This document shows positions 42,124-63,103 of a DNA stretch of 64,000 nt, one piece after another. The notes below the pieces were generated by a model. That model had not been told where the DNA came from. It did not search any database and saw only the letters and a list, made by a program, of their open reading frames with translations. Both the position numbers and the translations under genes were made by a program. The stretch comes from Dictyostelium discoideum. Lineage: Eukaryota. The DNA is taken from assembly GCA_000004695.1 (NCBI GenBank), contig CM000150.2, forward strand, positions 3,360,001-3,424,000, given 5' to 3'. Positions within the stretch are counted from its first letter, which is position 1; every line of letters begins with the position of its first letter.

Positions 42124-46095
<3,972 letters not shown>

Positions 46096-50805: not shown

Positions 50806-51071
50806 TTATTTATTACTATTTATACTATTTAAAACTGATGTAACATAAAAACTTGTTGATTTTTGTGATAACTCAGAGTGTGTGCCTCTTTCAATAATTC
50901 TATTATCATCAAATACTAAAATATTATTTGATCTTTTTAATGTTGACAATTTATTTGCAATTGCAATTACAGTTTTATTTTGAACCAATAATTCAATTGA
51001 ATCTTCAATTTCTTTTGAATCAAATGGTAATGTAGTTTCATCTAATAATAAAACTGATGGATCTATAGATA

Positions 51072-51106
<35 letters not shown>

Positions 51107-51593
51107 TGTTAAAATAAAAATATTATAAATAAAGAGAGAGAGAAAATATATATATATATATTTACTTCTTAAAAATGCTCTTGCAATTGAAATTTTTAAA
51201 ATTTGAATTGGATCAAAGAAATTATTTTTACCAATCATTGAATCATAACCATGTGGTAAACCAATTACAAAATCATGAAGATTTGCTTTCTTTGATGCAT
51301 CAATTATATTTTGAGTTGAAAGATGTGATAAACCATATCTAATATTTTGTTCCACGGTACCATCGAAAATTACAGTTTGTAGTGGTGAAATTGTGAATAA
51401 ACGGCTTCTAAAGAAATATAAATCCAAAACTTTTGTATCAATTCTACCAATGAAAACAGTACCACGAGTTGGATAATATAAACCTTGAATTAATGAAAAA
51501 ATAAATTCTTTTGATTGTGATGGCCCAACCAATGATAACCATTGACCTTTATTAACTATAAATGAAACATTTGATAATATCATACCATTATTA

Positions 51594-51633
<40 letters not shown>

Positions 51634-53124
51634 TATTATTATTATTATTAAAATAAACATTATCAAATGAAATATTTGAATCAGTTGATGGAGTTATACC
51701 ACCTTGAAAATGAACTATTGGTTTACGATCAATTAATGAGAAAATTCTTTTAGATGATGAAATTAATTTTTGAATTTCATTAATTGAACCGATTAAACCA
51801 TTCATAGAGGCAGTGATCATTAATGAATATAGAATGAATTGTAAGAGTAGTATTGAATTTGATAGAGTTTGTGACATTGCAAAACCATAAATTCCAATGA
51901 TTGTACCCATAACTAATAAACTACCAAATGAAATCCAAAATGCATTCATTAAAACGAATGAACGTGAACTACGATGTAATATTTCTAATTCCGTTTCAAA
52001 ACTTCTTAATTCTTTACTTTCAGCATTCAATAATCTAATCTCTTTAATATTACCAATTGAATCATCTATAATCAATCCAATATTAACTAACTTTTCTTGA
52101 ATATAATTATACTTTGGATGAATCCATTTCTTAAATACCAAAAATGATATTAATAATATAACTAAAAATGATATCATCAATAATGTAACTTTCCATGATA
52201 AAAATACTAAAATTAATAATCCACCAATTAATTGTAATGAACATCTAACTAATGTTGATAATGATACTGTTATACAATTTTGTAAAATTGACTATTTTAT
52301 TTTTGAAAAAAAAAAAAAAAAAAATTAATAATTTATAAATAATAATAAATATTTTTAATAATAATAATAATAATAATAATAATACATACAGAATCAGAAG
52401 CAATTACAGCTTTTAAATCACCAGTTCTATTTGAATCAAAATATGAAACTTCTTGAGTTAATAAAGATTTAAATAAATCACGTTTTAATTTTGTAACAAC
52501 ACTAAAACCTGCCATTGTAAATAATAAATAACGTGCAAATAAAAATGGTGTTTGAACTAATACTATAATGATAATCCATTTAAAATCATATTCCGTATTA
52601 CCAAAAAGTGATGTATATTTTGATGTTATTGATTCTAAAACTGTTGGATTTGTTGTTGTTGTTGTTATATTTGGTGTTGGTGTTGGTGTTATTATTATAT
52701 TATTATCTGTACTATTTACACTGTTTACTGTTAAATTAACTCTTATTGCTTCTTGAATACCATTTGCTAAATAATAGTAAAAAAAACAATTAATATATAT
52801 TTTTATAATAACAATTTAATATTATATATGTATTATTTACCAAAACAATAAGGTAATGCTAATTGACATAAAGTTGTTATTGAAAGCGCTAAAAATGCAA
52901 ATACGAAATACCAAATTTGTGGTCTAATATATGTTAGTATTCTATAGATACATCTTCTTGTTGAATAACTTGTTTTATAGAATGAATGCTCATCAAAACT
53001 ATCCTCTTCCAAGTAATCTACATCATCAAAATCATATACTGATCTTTTAAAATCAAAATCATCTTTATAATCAACTAAATATGGTGTAATTGAATTTAAA
53101 CTATTATTTATTTTATTTTTATTA

Positions 53125-53217
<93 letters not shown>

Positions 53218-53579
53218 TTATCTTGACTTGATTTATTATTTATTATTGGTAGAGGTGTATCTAAATTAAATTTTACAGAATTCCTTTTTTTATTTTTATT
53301 TTCTTTATCTAAATTAAATTCCTAAAAATAAAAATAAAAATAAAAATAAAAAAAATGGAAATTGTTGGTAAAAATTATTTTTTTTAGATTTAAAATAAAT
53401 AAAAAAAATTAAAAAAGAAATAAAAATAAAAAAATTAATAATCATATGATTATTAATTTATTTATATATACATATAATTTATTAAAAATATTTACAATTG
53501 GTGAAGTGCCTAATCCAATTGGAGATTCATCTTCTATATTATCCTCGTCCAAGTAATTATAATTACTTTTTCGGGTCAT
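50806..53579 (-). CDS. ABC half transporter (ABCB-like TMD-NBD) with degenerate ATPase motifs, ~774 aa, 5 exons: 53496..53579, 52841..53321, 52390..52766, 51166..52291, 50806..51062
   Basis: E1: MTRKSNYNYLDEDNIEDESPIGLGTSPI (GTAAAT donor). E2: an N-rich cytosolic extension then TM1 (IWYFVFAFLALSITTLCQLALPYCF). E3: TM helices and the conserved RxxxFxxLLxQEVSYFDSNRTGDLKAVIASDS block. E4: the remaining TM helices and the NBD up to ISIARAFLR. E5: NPSVLLLDETT...TVIAIANKLSTL...*. All junctions are GT..AG with phases closing (84+481+377+1126+257 = 2325 nt). NBD motifs deviate from consensus: Walker A VGPSQSKEF (consensus GxSGSGKST), signature FDPIQ (consensus LSGGQ), H-loop AIANKLST (consensus AHRLST), Walker B LLLDETT retained. 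Confidence 0.75.
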
Positions 53580-54229: not shown

Positions 54230-55170
54230 ATGTCAAGACCAGAACATATAGCACCACCAGAAATTGTAAATGAAAATTTAAATCAACACACACATAATAA
54301 ATTTAATATTAATATATTTTATTTATTTTAAAAAATTTATAGTTTTATGATGATGTTGAATCAAAGAAATATTCATCAAATTCACGTATTATTGAAATTC
54401 AAACTAAAATGGCAGAAAGAGCTTATGAATTATTAGCAATACCAGAGACAGCAGAGGGATTAATGTTATTGGATATTGGTTGTGGATCAGGTATTAGTGG
54501 TGATGTTATAACGGATGCAGGACATTATTGGATTGGTTGTGATATTTCACAACATATGTTGGATGTTGCAATAGATAGAGAGGTTGAGGGAGACGTAATG
54601 TTGAGAGATATAGGACAAGGGTTCCCATTTAGAGCAGGTTCATTCGATGCCGCAATAAGCATTTCCGCAATCCAGTGGCTTTGCAATGCCGAAAAGTCGC
54701 ACCACAACCCAAGAAAGAGACTACACACATTTTTTCAATCACTATTCAATGTTTTAACACGTGGTGGTAAAGCAATCTTACAATTTTATCCAGAGAATTC
54801 AGCTCAAATTGAGATGATCACTGCATCTGCATTGAGATGCGGTTTTAGTGGTGGTTTGTTAATTGATTTTCCAAATAGTAGTAAAGCAAAGAAATACTTT
54901 TTAGTTTTATTCACTGGTAATAATAATATTATGCCATCTGCAAAAGGTGTAGAAGGTGAGGAATATGAACAACAAGAAGAGGAAGACAGTAATGAAGTTA
55001 AATACTCAAATCGTAAAAGAGATAGAAGACGTGTTACAAAATCAAAAGGTTCTGCTCAACATAAAACTAAAGAATGGATTATGAATAAAAAAGATAGACA
55101 AAGAAAACAAGGTAGAGAAATTAAAAATGATTCTAAATTCTCTGGTAGAAAAAGAGGTCCAAAATTTTAA
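54230..55170 (+). CDS. Bud23/WBSCR22-type 18S rRNA (guanine-N7)-methyltransferase, ~287 aa, 2 exons: 54230..54265, 54343..55170
   Basis: Exon 1 (MSRPEHIAPPEI) has a GTAAAT donor. Acceptor TTTATAG at 54342 leads to exon 2 (FYDDVESKKYSSNSRIIEIQTKMAERAYELLAIPE...LDIGCGSGISGDVI...GCDISQHMLDVA...GSFDAAISISAIQWLCNA...GGKAILQFYP...CGFSGGLLIDFPNSSKAKKYFLVLFTG...KFSGRKRGPKF*). It is collinear with yeast Bud23 / human WBSCR22, including the PPEIFYND start, the SAM-binding DxGCGSG, and the C-terminal KFTGRKR nuclear-localisation tail. Confidence 0.85.
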
Positions 55171-55211
55171 AAATAAATTTAAATTTATTATTATTATTTT
55201 TATTGTTATAT

Positions 55212-55245
<34 letters not shown>

Positions 55246-55935
55246 CTTATACAAAAATAGTAATTATATATTACATCATTTCTTCTTTTTTTTTTTTTAG
55301 TATTTATTTATTTATTTTATTTTATTTCATTTTATTTTATTTTTTTTTTTTTTTTTCTTCATTTCTAAAAATATTTAATAAATAATTTAAAAAATATTAA
55401 ATTTGTTGATGATATCATTTAAAGATATTACAAGTAATGAAAAGGTTAATTCAAATATTTTAATTGGAAATTAATAGATTTTAGATTAATATGATCATTT
55501 TTTCCTTTTTTTTTTCCTTTTTTTTTTTTTCTATTTTTATTTTTTAAAATTAAATGTTTTTAATTTTATTTTTGATTTTATTATTTTTTTTTAAAATTTT
55601 AATTAATAAATTATTGGTGGTTTACTATTATTAGTATTAATATATTTTTTTATTTTTTTTTTTTTATTGTTATTATAATTATTATTATTATCATTATTTC
55701 CAATGTCAAGCCAACAAATTATACAAGTAAAGACATATGTTTCACTCGCTCTACTCTCCTTTTTTAAATTTAGTTTTAACATCTTGTATAAAAAAAAAAA
55801 AAAAAATAATAATAATAATAATAATTTTAAAAAAAAATAATAAAAAGATTTATCACACAGTACCACATTTAATTTATGAAATGCAAATATTAACAATATA
55901 CAAATGTACCACTTGACCTCAATTTTAATTAAAAA

Positions 55936-55967
<32 letters not shown>

Positions 55968-56342
55968 GGTAATAAAACAAAAAAAAAAAAAAAAAAAAAA
56001 TTTAGGGGGTGCTAGTGGTCGGAATAAATAAAATTAAAGACACAAGTAAGGAGGCAATAAACTAAAAGATCACATGTGATCAAAAAAAAACAAAAAAAAA
56101 ACAAAAACACAAAAAAAACAACCATATTTATAAAATATAACAAATTAAACTTAATTTGTTAAATAGGAGTTTGGAAAAAAAAAAAAAAAAACAAAATAAA
56201 ATAAAATAAAATAAAAATAATTTCTTTTTTTTTTTTTTTTTAATCATCCATTATCGCAAACCGAAACCTGTGATGAGGCGGTTTGTGATTTTTTTCAATA
56301 TTTTTTTTTTTTTTTATTTTTTATTTTTTATTTTTTTTTTTC

Positions 56343-56374
<32 letters not shown>

Positions 56375-57071
56375 CATTTATGAGAAGCCTGTAATAGTAA
56401 TAAAAATAATCAAAATAATTATAAAATCACAATACCATTATTAACAATAATATTAATAATAGTAAAATTATTAAAAAACAGTAATAATATAATTTATTGG
56501 TACTATCATTTTCTAAACAACAATTTTTTTTTTATTTTTATTTTTTTATTTTTTTTTATTTTTATTAATAGATTATTATTTTTTTCAATTTGTGTTTAAA
56601 AAAAAAAAAAAAAAAAAAAAATCAAAATAGATTTAAAAAAAAAAAAAAAATAGAAAGAAAAATAATAATCTATAATATTATATTTAATTTTTTATTTTTA
56701 TTTTTATTTTTTATTTTTAATGATTTTTTTTTTTTTTTAAAAAAAAAAAAGAAATATTTAATTATACAAATATTTAAATTCAAAATAACCTTTTTTAGTT
56801 TGTTTGAAAAAAATAAAATAAAAAAACATTTGTACTATAAAAATAAATAAGGTGATATACGTGTAAAAAGAAGAGTTAATCAAAGGTAGGAAGATAATTT
56901 ATCACCAAAAAAAAAAAAAAAAAAAAAAGAAAAAGAAAAAGAAAATATAATGTTATAACATTATAAAATTTATAAAAATTAATTTTCCAAAATATATTTT
57001 TTTTTTTTTTTTTATTATTTCTTTCTTTTTTTTAATTAAAGTTTAATTGCCCCAAAATATATTTTTTTTCA

Positions 57072-57114
<43 letters not shown>

Positions 57115-58032
57115 CTTTATTATTATTTTTATTATTATTATTATCATCATCATCATCATAATTATAATCTTATTCATCATCATCATCATTATCATCATTA
57201 ATATAGTAAGGGTGTGTTAATGGATATTTTTAGAGATATCAATTTTTTTTTTTTTTTTTCTATCCAATTTTTTTTTTTTTTTTTTTTTTTTTTTCTATTC
57301 TTTTTTTTTACCCCACCAAAAAAAAAAATATTAAATTGTACAACCACTAAACCCCTAGCACATACTATCAAAGGAAAGATAATAATACCAAATAACTGAC
57401 AATAGATATATTTTGATATTTATTAATATGTGGTTAAGTGTTTGGTTGGTTGTATAGAATTATCAGTTTAATCAATTACAATAATTTTTTATTTTTATTT
57501 TTTATTTTTGTTTTTCATATTATATTAAATATTGTACACATAATTGTTTTTTTTATTTTTTTTTTTTATTTTTTTTATTCCTTATTTTTTTATTTTTTCC
57601 AAATTTTTTTTTTATTTTTTTTTATTTTGTAACATCTATTGCTTTGAAATTTTTATACTATAGCATAGGTTATTAATTACTAACACAACTTTAAATTATT
57701 TATTTATTTTTATTTTCATTTTTTAAAAATAATAAATAAAAAAAAAAATTAACAAAACAAATAAATATAAAAGCAAACAAAAAAAAAATAAAAAAATAAA
57801 AAAAAAAATAAAATAAATTAGTTAATCAATAAATAAAAATAAAAAGTTAGTAAAAAAAAAAAAAAAAAGAAAAAAGAAAAAAGAAAAAAAGAAAAAAAAA
57901 TTGTACATTAAAAAAAAGGTAAGATATTTTTTTTTTTTTGGTTTTAAAATAAATAATAATTCAATCAAAAAAACAATTATTGTTTTTTTTTTTTTATTTT
58001 TTTTTTTATTTTTTTATTTTTTTTTTTTTTTG

Positions 58033-58125
58033 ATGAAAATTGGTATCTGCGAACATTTTCGGGCTCTGATATTTGTCACCACTAACAATCCCAAAAAAGC
58101 AATCGAACATTGCCCACTTTGTTAA
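58033..58125 (+). CDS. Candidate 30-aa small ORF (MKIGICEHFRALIFVTTNNPKKAIEHCPLC)
   Basis: A sharply bounded GC-richer island in a >90% AT desert. An ATG begins exactly where composition rises, and a TAA ends exactly where it falls. The peptide has CxxH...HCxxC spacing, a possible mini zinc-binding motif. It may instead be a structured ncRNA (contains UGAUGA and CUGA box-like words). Weak evidence either way. Confidence 0.25.
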   Translation: MKIGICEHFRALIFVTTNNPKKAIEHCPLC

Positions 58126-58519
58126 ATTTTTTTTTTTTATTCCATTTTATAAAAAAAAAAAAAGGAAAAAGAAAAAATCCAATTTTATTTTTTTTATTTT
58201 TTTTTATTTTTTTTTTTGTTTTTTTTTTTTTTTTTATAAAAAAAAAATTTCTTTGTGTTCAATTTTTAAAAAAAAAAACTTGCACAATAATAAGGAAATT
58301 ACATTCTTTATTTTTGTTTTTTAATATTTTTTTTTTTTTCCTATTTCTATAACAACAATACTTTATTTAATATTTAATGAACAAAAAAAAAAAAAAAACC
58401 AAATTAAAATTTAAAAATAAAATAAAATATCATCAAAAACAAATCAAGAATAAAATTAAAATTAAAATAATAATATCAAAAACAATTTAAAAGCAATTTA
58501 AATTGGAAATAAATTAATA

Positions 58520-58581
58520 ATGGCATCAATATCATTATCACAATCATCATCATCAAATAAATTACTAAAAAAAGGTACCAA
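58520..58581 (+). CDS. Hypothetical first exon (MASISLSQSSSSNKLLKKGTK) possibly spliced to the 60109..63103 GTPase-PH exon
   Basis: It is an ATG-initiated 62-nt GC-richer block ending at a GTAATT donor (phase 2). That phase matches the one required by the acceptors at 60108/60120/60126. The implied ~1.5-kb intron would be unusually long for Dictyostelium. Purely a frame/splice-signal inference. Confidence 0.25.
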
Positions 58582-58870
58582 GTAATTTAGTTTTTTTCTT
58601 TATCTTTTTTTTTTTTTTCTTTTTTTTTTTTTTAACTTTCCTATATACATACATACATACACCACACCTCAAAGAAATTATAATTTCAGTGAAATTAAAA
58701 AGAATAATAATCAACATAAATTATTTATGACAATCATCATTTAATTTTCAAGAACCAAATATAGATTCATTTAATTAAATTTTTTTTTTTTTAAAAAAAA
58801 AAACCACCTTTTGTTTACCTTGCGTACACAAAATTTATTATTTTATTTTCACTTTTTTTTTTTTTGATTT

Positions 58871-58901
<31 letters not shown>

Positions 58902-59384
58902 GATTGTTTCTTTTATAATAATTAAATCAAAATCACAAAAAATTTCCTTACAACAAAATGATTTGATCTATTTCATTCTCATAAAATATAAAAAGGCAAA
59001 TTTATAGTAATAAAGATAATGATTTAAAGTCACCAAAATTTTTTTTATTTTTTATTTTTTTTATTTTTTTTTATTTTATTTTTTTTTTTAAAATTAAAAG
59101 TTATTTTTAACCCACCAAATTAATTGTTCATCTTAAATAATTTTGTTGTTATTTTTAGCGCTGATCAAAAAAAAAAAAAAAAAAAAAATAAAATAAAATA
59201 ATTAAAAAAATTTTTTTTTCAAAAATTCCACACCACACAAGAAAAAAAAACTGGCTCTCAATACAAAAAAAATAAATAAATAAACACATCACACGATCAG
59301 GTATAGATAATTCATTCGAAGTTTTTTTTTTTTGTAATTTGATTTTATTTTATTTTATACCCTCTCAAATTTTCTCAAATAAAA

Positions 59385-59433
<49 letters not shown>

Positions 59434-59579
59434 CAAATTTTTTTTACTCCACCCACATAATCACAATAAAAAAAAAAGTCAATCTCAATGATTGTGATAG
59501 CTTTATGATTTTATAAAAAAACAACAACAACAATAATAATAATAATAATAATAACAATAATAAAAAACTATAAACTTAG

Positions 59580-59614
<35 letters not shown>

Positions 59615-60108
59615 CAAATTAAAAAAGTCAAAACACACAAAACACACATTTCAAATAATACAAATATAGACGTGATTCCAATAATTTGACACACACACAA
59701 TAAAAAACGCACAAATAACAATAAAAACAAAAACAACAATAACCTCTATTTTTAAATTGGATTGATATCTGGATAGTTGATATCAATTGTATGTTATGCT
59801 TTTATAAATTTGTGTATTTTTTTTTATTTTTATTTTTATCATAATTATGCTATTATTGAATTACACACAAAATTTCCAATTAATAACATTTTTATTATTT
59901 CCTTTTATTAACACATTTGATTATAATTGGTTAATTAATTTTTAATTTTTTTTTTTTTTATTTTATTATTTTTTTTCCTTTTTTTAAACACAATATAAAT
60001 TTTTAATTTTTTTTTAATTTACTTTATTTAAATATAATTAATTTTAAATTAAAACATACATATATTAACTTTATTTATTTATTTTTTCTTTCGCACAAAA
60101 TAAATAGA

Positions 60109-60562
60109 AAAATCAACAGAAAATAGTTTAAAACCAACAACAACAACAACAACATCACCAACATCATCAAAGTTGGGATTCCTTAATCGATCAAAAAGTA
60201 ATAGTAATATAAATATAAACGAACTAAAAAATAAATTTTTAGAACAACAACAAGAAGGTTCAATAAGTAATATAGCTGGTGTAGCAACAACACAACAAAA
60301 TCCATCAATAGTAATAAATTCATCATCATCATCATCATCTTCTTCATCTCATCATCCACATCATCAAAAAACACCGAGTAATAGTAGTAGTAATTTCAAT
60401 TTAATAAAAGCAAGTTTTAATCAAATTGGTGTAGCATTTAATAATAATATATCACCAAGATCAAATAGAAAAGAAAAAGAAAAAGATAAAGATAAAGATC
60501 ATCAAGATAATAGTAATATAAATAATATAAATAATATAAATAATAATATAAATAATAATATA

Positions 60563-60608
<46 letters not shown>

Positions 60609-63103
60609 TGCATAATCCAACATCATCATCACCATCAATTAATAATAATTTAAAAGGTAAAAATGTTGCATCGATTATTGCAGCAAATGGAGCCAATTTA
60701 AATAATAGTTTAAGTAATCTACATCAACATGTAAATAATAATTCAAATAATAATTTAACCAATAGTTTCAATAGTGTATCACATAATAATATATCGATAT
60801 CAAGTGGTGGTAGTGCATTAAGTTATAATTATACCCAACAATTGAATCAAAATGGTGGTAGTAATAATGGTAGTACAAGTAATAGTACAAGTAATAGCGC
60901 AAACAATAGTTTGTTATCACTGGCATCATCAATCAATGGTAATATTGGTAGTGATGAGAATGGTAGTAATGTTATGTATGGTGGTGATATTGCATCCTCT
61001 TATCATTCAATGTCAATTGACCCATTGAAATCAAGTACCAACACAGAAACCATTGAAATTATGGTAGTTGGTGATGAGTTATCCAATAAGGCTAGATTTA
61101 TATCATCATTTTTAAATAATGGTATTGGTGAAGATCCAACATTGGAAATTTCAACAAAGAAATCCATAGCAATTCAATCGGGTGCTTACAATGTAAACAT
61201 AAACACAACGGTTGGTCAAGAAGAGTTTTGGGGTATTAATGATGTATATTATCGTTCAAGTCAAGGTTTCATCTTTGTATACAATGTAAATTCACGTGAA
61301 AGTTTCCTTTCATTCCTTAAATTTCGTGATAAGATCATCCATGAAAAAGGTACAGAGAATATTTTAATGGCAATGGTTGGTTTAACTTCACCATTGATAA
61401 ATCAAGAATCTGGTGAAGAAAGTTGTATAAGAGAAGTAACTCAACAAGAAGCAAAACGTATGGCTGATCTTTATAGTTGTTCATTTGTTGAATTAAATAG
61501 TTTTGGTTTAGATTGCGAACATCAAATTCAATCAATTGTAACCGATTTATTAGGCCGTATAACAAGTGGTTTATCTTCAACCAACAATAACAACAGTGGT
61601 AACAATAGCAATAATAACAATGGCAATAGTAATGGTAATAGTAGTAATAATAATAGTAATAATAATAGTACAAATAATTTAAATAATAGTGCAATTTTAA
61701 ATGAATCAATTGCTCAATCAATTGAAGTTTTAATGTTGGGTGATATTTTCGTTGGTAAAACTCAAATCATTCAAAGATTGTTAGGTAATCCATTTCAAAA
61801 TGCTTATAAGGAAACCACGGAATGGAATAGAAACGTTTATCAAATGACGGTAAATGATGTAAGATATTTATTAAAGATTGTTGATACATGTGGTTTGGAT
61901 ATTGAAGAGACATTAAATCGTGAAAGATTAGTTAGTACACAAGGTTTTATTTTCGTTTATTCGATTGCTTCTCGTGAAAGTTTTCTAATGATTGAACAAT
62001 TGCGTAAGAAACTATCAAGTATTAAAAGTGAGACTAAAATTCCATCGGTTTTAATCGCCAATAAGGGTGATTCATTAATTCGTCAAGTTACATTTGATGA
62101 AGGTAGTAAGATGGCACAACATCTTGGTAGTCATTATTTCGAGGTGTCTTCGATGTTCTCTGACGATGAATCCATTGGTAGACCATTCGAACAATTGTTG
62201 ATCGATATTCAAAAGTCGGGTAATGCAAGCGGCTTTGAACCAAGCGAAATCAAAAAGAAGGGTTATCTATTTAAAGAGGGTAAGAAATTGAAATCCATGT
62301 CAAAATACTTTTTCAAGGCAAGTAGAGGTAATCTATCCTATTGTAAGAATGAATCCAATAAGAGTAAGGTGAAATCCATACAATTGTCTGAACAAATTCA
62401 ATTGGCAATACCACATAATGTTCATGAGAAAAAGGACGTTTGGCCATTCTCTATCATTTTAGATCCAGTTAGTAAACATAGTATCAATTTAATAGCCTCC
62501 ACTGAGGAGGAAAGAAATGCTTGGATTAAAGCAATCAAATTCAATTGTTTCCTTGAAGATATAACTTCAAATATTATAGATGATGTCGTAAAAAGTATGG
62601 TTAGTGAAATTGCCTCTGGTGTGGCTGGCAGTGGTAGTAATAATGGTAATAATAATGGTCATTTAAAACGTTCCGATACTACTCAACAATTAAATAATAG
62701 TGGTAGTTTTATTAATGGTATAAATGCAAATAAACCAGTACCAAACTTTTCAAATTTATCAATTAGCGGTGGTGGTAGTAGTAACAATTCAAATAATTCA
62801 ACACCAATGTCTTCACCATATGGTAGTAGTAATAATTTCTCTTCACATTTATCACAATCAACTTCATCAATGTCAATGTCACCACAACAACAATTACAAA
62901 GTGTATTATTATCCTCTTCAAATCTTTCATCGTCAATGAATAGTAGTTTTAGTTATTCTTCTTCAATTTCTTCCTCTTACACTGATTCAATGTCTGGTTC
63001 TCCACCAGATTCAAATGGTCAAGTTTTCCCTCAATCTCCACAACTAAAGAAAACTTTATTCCAACGTACTACTAGTTTTTCAAAAGGAAGCAAATTAAAA
63101 TAA
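60109..63103 (+). CDS. Tandem Ras-like GTPase domains (first degenerate, second canonical) + C-terminal PH domain protein, main coding exon, >=976 aa; 5' start unresolved
   Basis: The ORF-track start at 60173 is TTG. The frame is open back to 60053 with no in-frame ATG, so initiation must be in an upstream exon. AG acceptors at 60108, 60120 and 60126 are all phase-compatible. Domain 1: IEIMVVGDELSNKARFIS (no GxxxxGKS/T), NTTVGQEEF, no NKxD. Domain 2: LMLGDIFVGKTQII (P-loop), IVDTCGLD (DTAG-like), LIANKGDS (NKxD), FEVSSM (SAK-like). PH domain: KKGYLFKEGKKLKSMSKYFFKASRGNLSYCKNE...WPFSIILDPVSKHSINLIASTEEERNAWIKAIKFN. Followed by a Ser/Asn-rich tail and stop at 63101-63103. Confidence 0.7.

Follow-up and report, generated by a model that had tools for sequence, protein, structure and literature searches.

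ATP-binding cassette (ABC) exporters are defined mechanistically by the ATP-driven dimerization of their nucleotide-binding domains (NBDs), and to our knowledge the sites described as degenerate in these proteins always leave one consensus site in place and keep ATP bound. A gene of Dictyostelium discoideum raises the question of what an exporter is kept for when nearly the whole of its ATP site has gone, and whether such a gene is decaying, supplies one subunit of an otherwise canonical pump, or has been retained for a different job. The gene lies on the minus strand of a 64,000-nucleotide window (assembly GCA_000004695.1, contig CM000150.2, positions 3,360,001 to 3,424,000), in which all coordinates below are counted. 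It had been picked out in a sequence-only reading of this DNA, which proposed an ABC half-transporter whose NBD has lost the Walker A, signature and H-loop consensus. We determined that the gene is intact and held by purifying selection. The reading that we favour, and that we regard as moderately probable, is that its NBD is a selectively maintained, non-catalytic pseudo-NBD. It would cap a transporter-like membrane domain, in a structural or regulatory role, and the protein would do its work with no canonical cycle of ATP use.

From ATG to stop, the coding region occupies 50806..53579 on the minus strand, as do all further features of the gene given here. Its five exons (53579-53496, 53321-52841, 52766-52390, 52291-51166 and 51062-50806) are separated by introns that are all GT..AG, and splicing yields 2325 nt and 774 aa in a single open frame with no internal stop. 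The span and exon coordinates drawn earlier from the letters matched this spliced model exactly. Gene calls made independently for D. citrinum and for two other D. discoideum assemblies returned an identical exon structure, and intron positions and synteny were conserved at the D. purpureum, D. citrinum and second D. discoideum loci, from which exact coding sequences were recovered for comparison. The GC content of 4-30% across the gene stretch, the poly-Asn coding tracts and the short introns are the usual Dictyostelium make-up. It was also noted that three low-complexity segments differ in length, in frame, from another D. discoideum strain: the N-terminal poly-Asn tract (53112-53219) by 69 nt, a Thr/Pro-rich external loop (52680-52700) by 12 nt, and a poly-Asn insert at the A-loop (51587-51652) by 18 nt.

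By architecture and fold, the protein is an ABCB-type half-transporter. Pfam and hydropathy gave a domain order of six transmembrane (TM) helices followed by one NBD, and the membrane domain was recognized by PF00664 (ABC_membrane) at aa 227-474 with 110 bits and E = 2e-31 (cut-off 28). When compared with single halves of solved structures by phmmer against PDB, the protein scored best with ABCB-type exporters, at 203 bits with ABCB9, 195 with ABCB10, 186 with ABCB8 and 168-173 with the two ABCB1 halves. An AlphaFold2 (AF2) model built from 66 sequences reached a predicted local distance difference test (pLDDT) score of 80.5 and a predicted TM-score (pTM) of 0.71. Searching PDB with this model by Foldseek retrieved ABCB10, TM287/288, ABCB8, MsbA, TmrAB and ABCB9 at E ~1e-30 and TM-scores of 0.7-0.8, with values near 0.8 for TM287/288, TmrAB, MsbA, ABCB8 and ABCB9. 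The structure model and the profile search described below were queried with P0001, a 95%-identical protein of another D. discoideum strain; AF2 run on the seven orthologues alone gave a poor model (pLDDT 53). Like the canonical half-transporters ABCB9/TAPL, ABCB10 and ABCB8 and the halves of ABCB1, the protein places its transmembrane domain (TMD) of six helices before the NBD and carries the conserved motif TQEVSYFD in intracellular loop 1 (ICL1). In contrast to them, its Pfam domain scores amount to 35-50% of theirs, and it has lost the A-loop, Walker A, Q-loop, signature, D-loop and H-loop that these ATP-driven pumps each keep.

The pseudo-NBD comprises aa 501-774 (50809..51733, with the intron 51165-51063 inside). 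PF00005 (ABC_tran) matched it at aa 553-700 with 36 bits and E = 1e-8 (cut-off 25) over profile positions 1-136 of 137, while the orthologues scored 41-47 bits and canonical relatives 98-122 bits with the same profile. The motifs were read from a HMMER alignment to ABCB1/ABCB4 and from a column comparison with 112 canonical ABCB-type proteins, every one of which keeps the Walker A glycine and lysine, the Q-loop Gln, and the Ser and second Gly of the signature (all 1.00). At the A-loop position, the aromatic residue is lost and Asn530 stands in its place; this column holds Tyr at 0.97 in the canonical set versus N/L/H/H/Q/H/H in the orthologues. Here a 20-residue poly-Asn insertion, whose length varies in frame between strains, is confined to D. 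discoideum and D. citrinum (A-loop position and insertion together aa 528-549, 51587..51652). The pseudo-Walker A VGPSQSKEF (aa 569-577, 51503..51529) aligns as GPSQ-SKEF with the canonical GSSGCGKST, so that one residue is deleted, both inner glycines are gone, and Glu-Phe follows the Lys in place of Ser-Thr. Over eight species its consensus is G-[PL]-S-x-x-K-[DE].

Similar losses were encountered through the rest of the domain. At the Q-loop position, TISPLQT (aa 614-620, 51374..51394), the column that holds Gln at 1.00 in the canonical set reads P/P/S/S/S/S/S in the orthologues, with Ser in the other genera. The X-loop and signature position GKNNFFDPIQIL (aa 668-679, 51197..51232) is degenerate and varies among species: Lys669 and Asn671 replace the X-loop Glu and Gly, and FDPIQ (aa 673-677) stands for LSGGQ, with LNSLQ, LNNQH, LTSQH, LGTVH and others among the orthologues. 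Walker B, VLLLDE (aa 693-698), is intact including the catalytic Glu, with no orthologue varying at D697 or E698. It is followed directly by a degenerate D-loop, TTLPFD (aa 699-704; the two motifs together 51019..51054). At the H-loop position, IAIANKLS (aa 722-729, 50944..50967), His has been replaced by Asn726, in a column that is His at 0.99 in the canonical set versus N/N/N/H/T/N/N in the orthologues.

From this examination, the Walker A loss, the FDPIQ signature and the His-to-Asn exchange described in the sequence-only reading were borne out by the alignment and the column comparison, as was the Walker B that it gave as LLLDE. Its calls of a present Q-loop and D-loop had to be reversed. 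The Gln column is occupied by Pro617, and the nearby Gln619 stands out of register, behind a one-residue insertion that only D. discoideum and D. citrinum carry. In the D-loop, SALD is reduced to its last acidic residue (TLPFD). Both corrections strengthen the conclusion that the earlier reading had drawn. Missing in all orthologues are the A-loop Tyr, two Walker A Gly, the Ser/Thr after the Lys, the Q-loop Gln, the X-loop Glu and Gly, the signature SGG and the D-loop SA, and only Lys575, Asp697 and Glu698 are kept of the catalytic machinery. The H-loop His is gone from every orthologue except that of P. violaceum. We infer that canonical ATP binding and hydrolysis have been lost.

We sought orthologues by protein search and found them in two other D. 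discoideum assemblies, D. citrinum, D. purpureum, Polysphondylium violaceum, Tieghemostelium lacteum, Acytostelium subglobosum and Heterostelium album. One more, from Synstelium polycarpum, came out of a profile search over 1.84 billion representative proteins. The sequence-only reading had allowed for two outcomes in related species, conserved degenerate motifs or recent decay. The same degenerate motif state was found in eight dictyostelid species of two orders (Dictyosteliales and Acytosteliales), and no orthologue with intact motifs was seen. Common to all orthologues are the pseudo-Walker A, the loss of the Q-loop Gln, A-loop and signature, and the retained Walker B Asp-Glu. Outside Dictyostelia, the profile search returned no closer relatives among its 1.84 billion representatives, the next matches being generic full-length ABCB1-like proteins. 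The family appears confined to Dictyostelia, and its distribution indicates that the degenerate state predates the split of Dictyosteliales and Acytosteliales and was present in their common ancestor. Some of the public gene models look faulty: those of Acytostelium (P0006) and Heterostelium (P0007) are without TM segments seen in other orthologues, and that of Synstelium (P0122) is fused to a downstream protein.

A decaying pseudogene, or an artefact of sequencing or annotation, was considered as an account of the lost motifs. In its favour are the Pfam scores of both the NBD and the TMD, which reach only some 1/3 to 1/2 of the values for canonical relatives, and the AT-rich sequence with its poly-Asn tracts. 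The pattern of substitution is opposed to it. We compared the gene with that of D. citrinum by the Nei-Gojobori method, at a dS of ~0.2-0.3 that is unsaturated. The ratio of nonsynonymous to synonymous substitution rates (dN/dS) came to 0.16 over the entire gene. The TMD and the NBD each gave 0.11, and the NBD core, where the synonymous excess was strongly supported (Fisher p = 9e-15), gave 0.076. Indels between strains and species were all multiples of three. The same protein was recovered from independent assemblies of three D. discoideum strains and from seven other species, with an intact open reading frame and canonical splice sites; transcripts have also been reported, if the gene is abcB7 as discussed below.

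The sequence-only reading had named two findings that would overturn it: a frameshift or sequencing error hiding canonical motifs, and a pseudogene gathering stop codons beside orthologues with intact motifs. No other reading frame restores the canonical motifs, and there are no frameshifts at the locus, which rules out the first. The second is ruled out by the lack of stops, the lack of any orthologue with intact motifs, the in-frame indels and the dN/dS of 0.08-0.16 (p below 1e-13). We assign a pseudogene or artefact a negligible probability.

The distribution of constraint within the domain was also informative. Same-length windows within the NBD core were compared inside the orthogroup, and the five-residue signature window was found to be among the least conserved, with only 9 of 204 windows equally or less conserved. 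The X-loop and signature window fell in the bottom 6% (12 of 197 equally low or lower) and the D-loop window in the bottom 12%. At the other extreme, the segment that follows the Q-loop, VIFDGTVEQNIRYGL (aa 621-635, 51329..51373), is the most conserved stretch of the NBD, with a mean pairwise identity of 0.91 that only 1 other of 194 windows matched. In solved exporters, this segment shapes the groove that takes the coupling helices of the TMD. The usual conservation pattern of an NBD is inverted inside this orthogroup: the ATP-sandwich interface drifts and the coupling-helix surface is fixed. The pseudo-P-loop is conserved in its new form, without drift.

These profiles bear on the kind of dimer that the protein could form. 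An NBD unable to offer a signature to its partner would leave any dimer without a consensus ATP site, and the free drift of the signature, X-loop and D-loop speaks, on evolutionary grounds, for a subunit that sandwiches no partner's ATP. The earlier proposal of an impairment at both composite sites in any dimer, through a defective Walker A and H-loop in cis and a defective signature in trans, gains support here from an independent line of evidence. The asymmetric heterodimers TAP1/TAP2, TM287/288, TmrAB and LmrCD, together with ABCC proteins including CFTR and SUR, resemble the window protein in maintaining non-consensus NBD residues that have a structural or regulatory role (PMC7756269). They differ in that only one of their composite sites is degenerate, with the changes falling on the Walker B Glu and H-loop in one NBD and on the signature in its partner, while Walker A is intact, ATP is bound and the second site is consensus. 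The window protein shows the opposite arrangement. A single NBD retains the catalytic Glu but has given up Walker A, A-loop, Q-loop, H-loop and signature together, so no consensus site could be expected to form. A TAP1-like asymmetric subunit was ruled out on the lost Walker A, the kept catalytic Glu and the unconstrained signature and D-loop. The sequence-only reading had likewise set the protein apart from ordinary asymmetric subunits, as a catalytically dead or regulatory pseudo-transporter, and the orthologue motifs and dN/dS values argue for that assignment.

A different kind of heterodimer deserves consideration, in which the protein would be the non-catalytic subunit beside a canonical ABCB half-transporter (e.g. 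abcB1, abcB4, abcB6 or a Tag protein), either as a dominant-negative partner that sequesters the other subunit in inactive dimers or as a structural partner on a crippled ATP site. Half-transporters must dimerize, and several canonical ABCB half-transporters exist in Dictyostelium. The strong conservation of the TMD and of the coupling-helix docking segment is as expected for a protein that engages a domain-swapped partner, and developmental and stress-responsive regulation (if the gene is abcB7) would suit a regulator. However, a subunit that clamps the ATP of its partner should conserve the signature and D-loop, and these are both among the most variable NBD segments. From the composite-site architecture (PMC7756269), transport is not expected when both sites are without consensus elements. 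Neither synteny nor sequence points to a partner: no adjacent ABC gene was found in the window or in three orthologous loci (L001-L003), and a search with the TMD only for Dictyostelium paralogues or partners gave three matches, none of which was identified as a canonical paralogue or partner. We consider such a heterodimer rather unlikely.

The membrane domain and the N-terminus offer some indication of where the protein might act. The transmembrane domain covers 51794..52928 (with the introns 52389-52292 and 52840-52767 inside) and has a type IV/ABCB exporter fold; hydropathy predicted its six TM segments at aa 166-184, 253-271, 323-341, 349-367, 428-446 and 457-475. The loop between TM1 and TM2, at 68 aa (52576..52853, intron 52840-52767 inside), carries three N-x-S/T sequons and a Thr/Pro-rich stretch. 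Among the orthologues, all those with a gene model that holds both TM1 and TM2 have sequons here. A long TM1-TM2 loop with glycosylation sequons is shared with ABCB1, and the loop is probably luminal or extracellular and glycosylated, like extracellular loop 1 (ECL1) of P-glycoprotein. The N-terminus MTRKSNYNYLDEDNIEDE is acidic and has no mitochondrial presequence character. Orthologue alignment picked out within it a Y-x-x-L plus acidic motif, YNYLDED (aa 7-13, 53541..53561), in which Y7, L10 and E12 are invariant in 7 orthologues while the remaining N-terminal 140 residues are fast-evolving (dN/dS 0.42). It looks like a tyrosine-based sorting signal, a function suggested by this resemblance.

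The gene is very probably abcB7, although the case for this is circumstantial. The window gene adjoins a gene for a Bud23/WBSCR22-type methyltransferase, which we take to be DDB_G0269722. Its D. purpureum orthologue lies ~5 kb from a Ciao1 gene (L001 1-768; a WD40 protein of cytosolic iron-sulfur (Fe-S) assembly), and D. discoideum ciao1 is DDB_G0269728, four identifier steps from abcB7, which is DDB_G0269720 in dictyBase (Miranda et al. 2013, Tables S5/S6). That a gene of Fe-S assembly lies so close is probably due to chance. If the window gene is abcB7, it belongs to an RNA-seq-derived 'conserved developmental' gene set (Miranda et al. 2013), and its transcript was induced 4.6-fold by PCB138 in quantitative PCR (PMC12572271, 2025). 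The latter study entered DDB_G0269720 as 'ABCB7, mitochondrial membrane' and interpreted the induction as mitochondrial iron release or export. The degenerate ATPase site, the acidic N-terminus, the loop sequons and the lack of affinity to Atm1 argue against that interpretation, for which the sequence offers no support.

The Dictyostelium name abcB7 invites confusion with human ABCB7. All that the window protein has in common with human ABCB7 and yeast Atm1, the mitochondrial exporter of an Fe-S precursor, is the ABCB half-transporter architecture and the label 'abcB7'. Orthology to ABCB7/Atm1 was ruled out: Atm1/ABCB7 structures were absent among the best 60 PDB matches, the acidic N-terminus is not a presequence, and the literature maps human ABCB7 to DDB_G0292554. 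This last gene, named abcB5 in dictyBase, encodes the Dictyostelium protein most similar to human ABCB7 (41% identity; COG5265 ATM1). The window gene is already annotated, and its degenerate ATP site is apparently undescribed; we found no description of the degenerate NBD in the literature searched, outside which lay the original 2002 Dictyostelium ABC inventory (Anjard & Loomis). An ABC 'pseudoenzyme' NBD without Walker A was likewise not found described in the literature. A review of degenerate sites in type I exporters covers only proteins with one consensus site and an ATP-binding degenerate site (PMC7756269), and an inventory of Trichomonas ABC proteins describes only signature-degenerate ABCA pairs. 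Judged by its motifs, the window protein would be a conserved pseudo-ATPase ABC exporter, which belongs to the ABCB family by fold and fails the motif criteria of a functional ABC ATPase.

In the favoured reading of a maintained pseudo-NBD, the domain would be kept as a non-catalytic module that forms a cap over the membrane domain's intracellular coupling helices and keeps hold of them, and such a cap would explain the invariant post-Q-loop segment. The Lys-[Asp/Glu] of the pseudo-P-loop and the Walker B Asp-Glu may form an internal salt bridge or charge network in place of Mg-ATP. The protein would then act without ATP-driven alternating access, which is the least certain step, possibly as a homodimer, the arrangement that we favour, in a secretory-pathway, endolysosomal or plasma membrane. 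Its role could be that of a passive or gradient-driven facilitator, or of a ligand-binding or regulatory membrane protein. There is a precedent in proteins of the SbmA/BacA type, which have an ABC-exporter-like TMD and no NBD and are driven by the proton gradient. They show that an exporter-type membrane domain can work without ATP hydrolysis, as a functional analogy only; unlike them, the window protein conserves a full-length pseudo-NBD.

Several observations weigh against this reading of a non-catalytic cap. P. violaceum carries His at the H-loop position (IPHRHST), and the Acytostelium P-loop is full-length (GLSTQAKD, eight residues) without the one-residue deletion, so the site is not uniformly destroyed. 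Canonical homologues dominate the AF2 alignment, and the pseudo-P-loop geometry in that model is not trustworthy. The membrane location is deduced only from the sequons, the acidic N-terminus and the YxxL motif, the sequence would be compatible with either a homodimer or a heterodimer, and the circumstantial match to dictyBase abcB7 (DDB_G0269720) limits the reading as well. No biochemical, localization or knockout reports on the protein were found in the literature. Lastly, none of the eight species departs from the Walker A Lys or from the Walker B Asp-Glu, which could equally mean that residual, non-canonical binding of a nucleotide or phosphate persists. As a separate observation, the P. 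violaceum His and the Acytostelium P-loop may give a clue to the succession of motif losses.

The invariance of these three residues leads to another possibility, that the protein is a nucleotide sensor or slow switch whose pseudo-site binds ATP, ADP or another phosphate ligand through Lys575, Asp697 and Glu698, comparable to site 1 of SUR or CFTR or to nucleotide-binding pseudokinases. Degenerate sites of known ABC exporters usually still bind ATP tightly (PMC7756269), and the pseudo-P-loop G-P-S-x-x-K-[D/E] has been conserved together with the three residues. All known ATP-binding degenerate sites, however, keep a GxxGxGK[ST] Walker A and the A-loop aromatic. The window protein has neither of the two inner glycines and no Mg-coordinating Ser/Thr, and it is also without the A-loop aromatic and the Q-loop Gln. 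The P-loop is one residue shorter in 7 of the 8 species, D. discoideum and D. citrinum carry poly-Asn at the A-loop, and the acidic residue beside the Lys would repel phosphate. We regard a sensor of this kind as improbable.

The surroundings of the gene were also characterized. The Bud23/WBSCR22-like methyltransferase gene occupies 54409-55170 on the plus strand, and a tandem Ras/Roc-GTPase plus PH-domain gene lies further along at 60173-63103, also on the plus strand. Between them, the ~5 kb at 55200-60170 hold homopolymer and AT-rich tandem repeats only, with no convincing open reading frame and no transfer RNA (tRNA); the gap is unusually long for an intergenic region in a compact genome. 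No tRNA or other RNA genes were found near the window gene, and the tandem repeats around it are ordinary AT-rich low-complexity sequence. Downstream of it, a gene with an NTP_transf_7 domain (PF07984) is located at 42124-46095. By position, the protein fused to the Synstelium model may match this gene, in which case the adjacency would be conserved in Synstelium.

A broader proposal, which we put forward tentatively and hold at somewhat less than an even chance, is that the abcB7 orthogroup is the first described ABC exporter lineage in which both potential ATP sites are dead and conservation of the complete TMD-NBD protein nevertheless reaches back to the last common ancestor of Dictyostelia. 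Its members could be ATP-independent channels, facilitators or receptors, or they could serve, in development and stress, as inbuilt negative regulators of the canonical ABCB half-transporters, and the pseudo-P-loop (K-[D/E] plus Walker B D-E) might mimic the nucleotide-bound state internally. A half-transporter that is under strong purifying selection without nearly its whole ATP site would show that the TMD-NBD scaffold can be reused for an ATP-independent job, and the Dictyostelium gene provides a genetically tractable system for the role of an ABC exporter without its motor.

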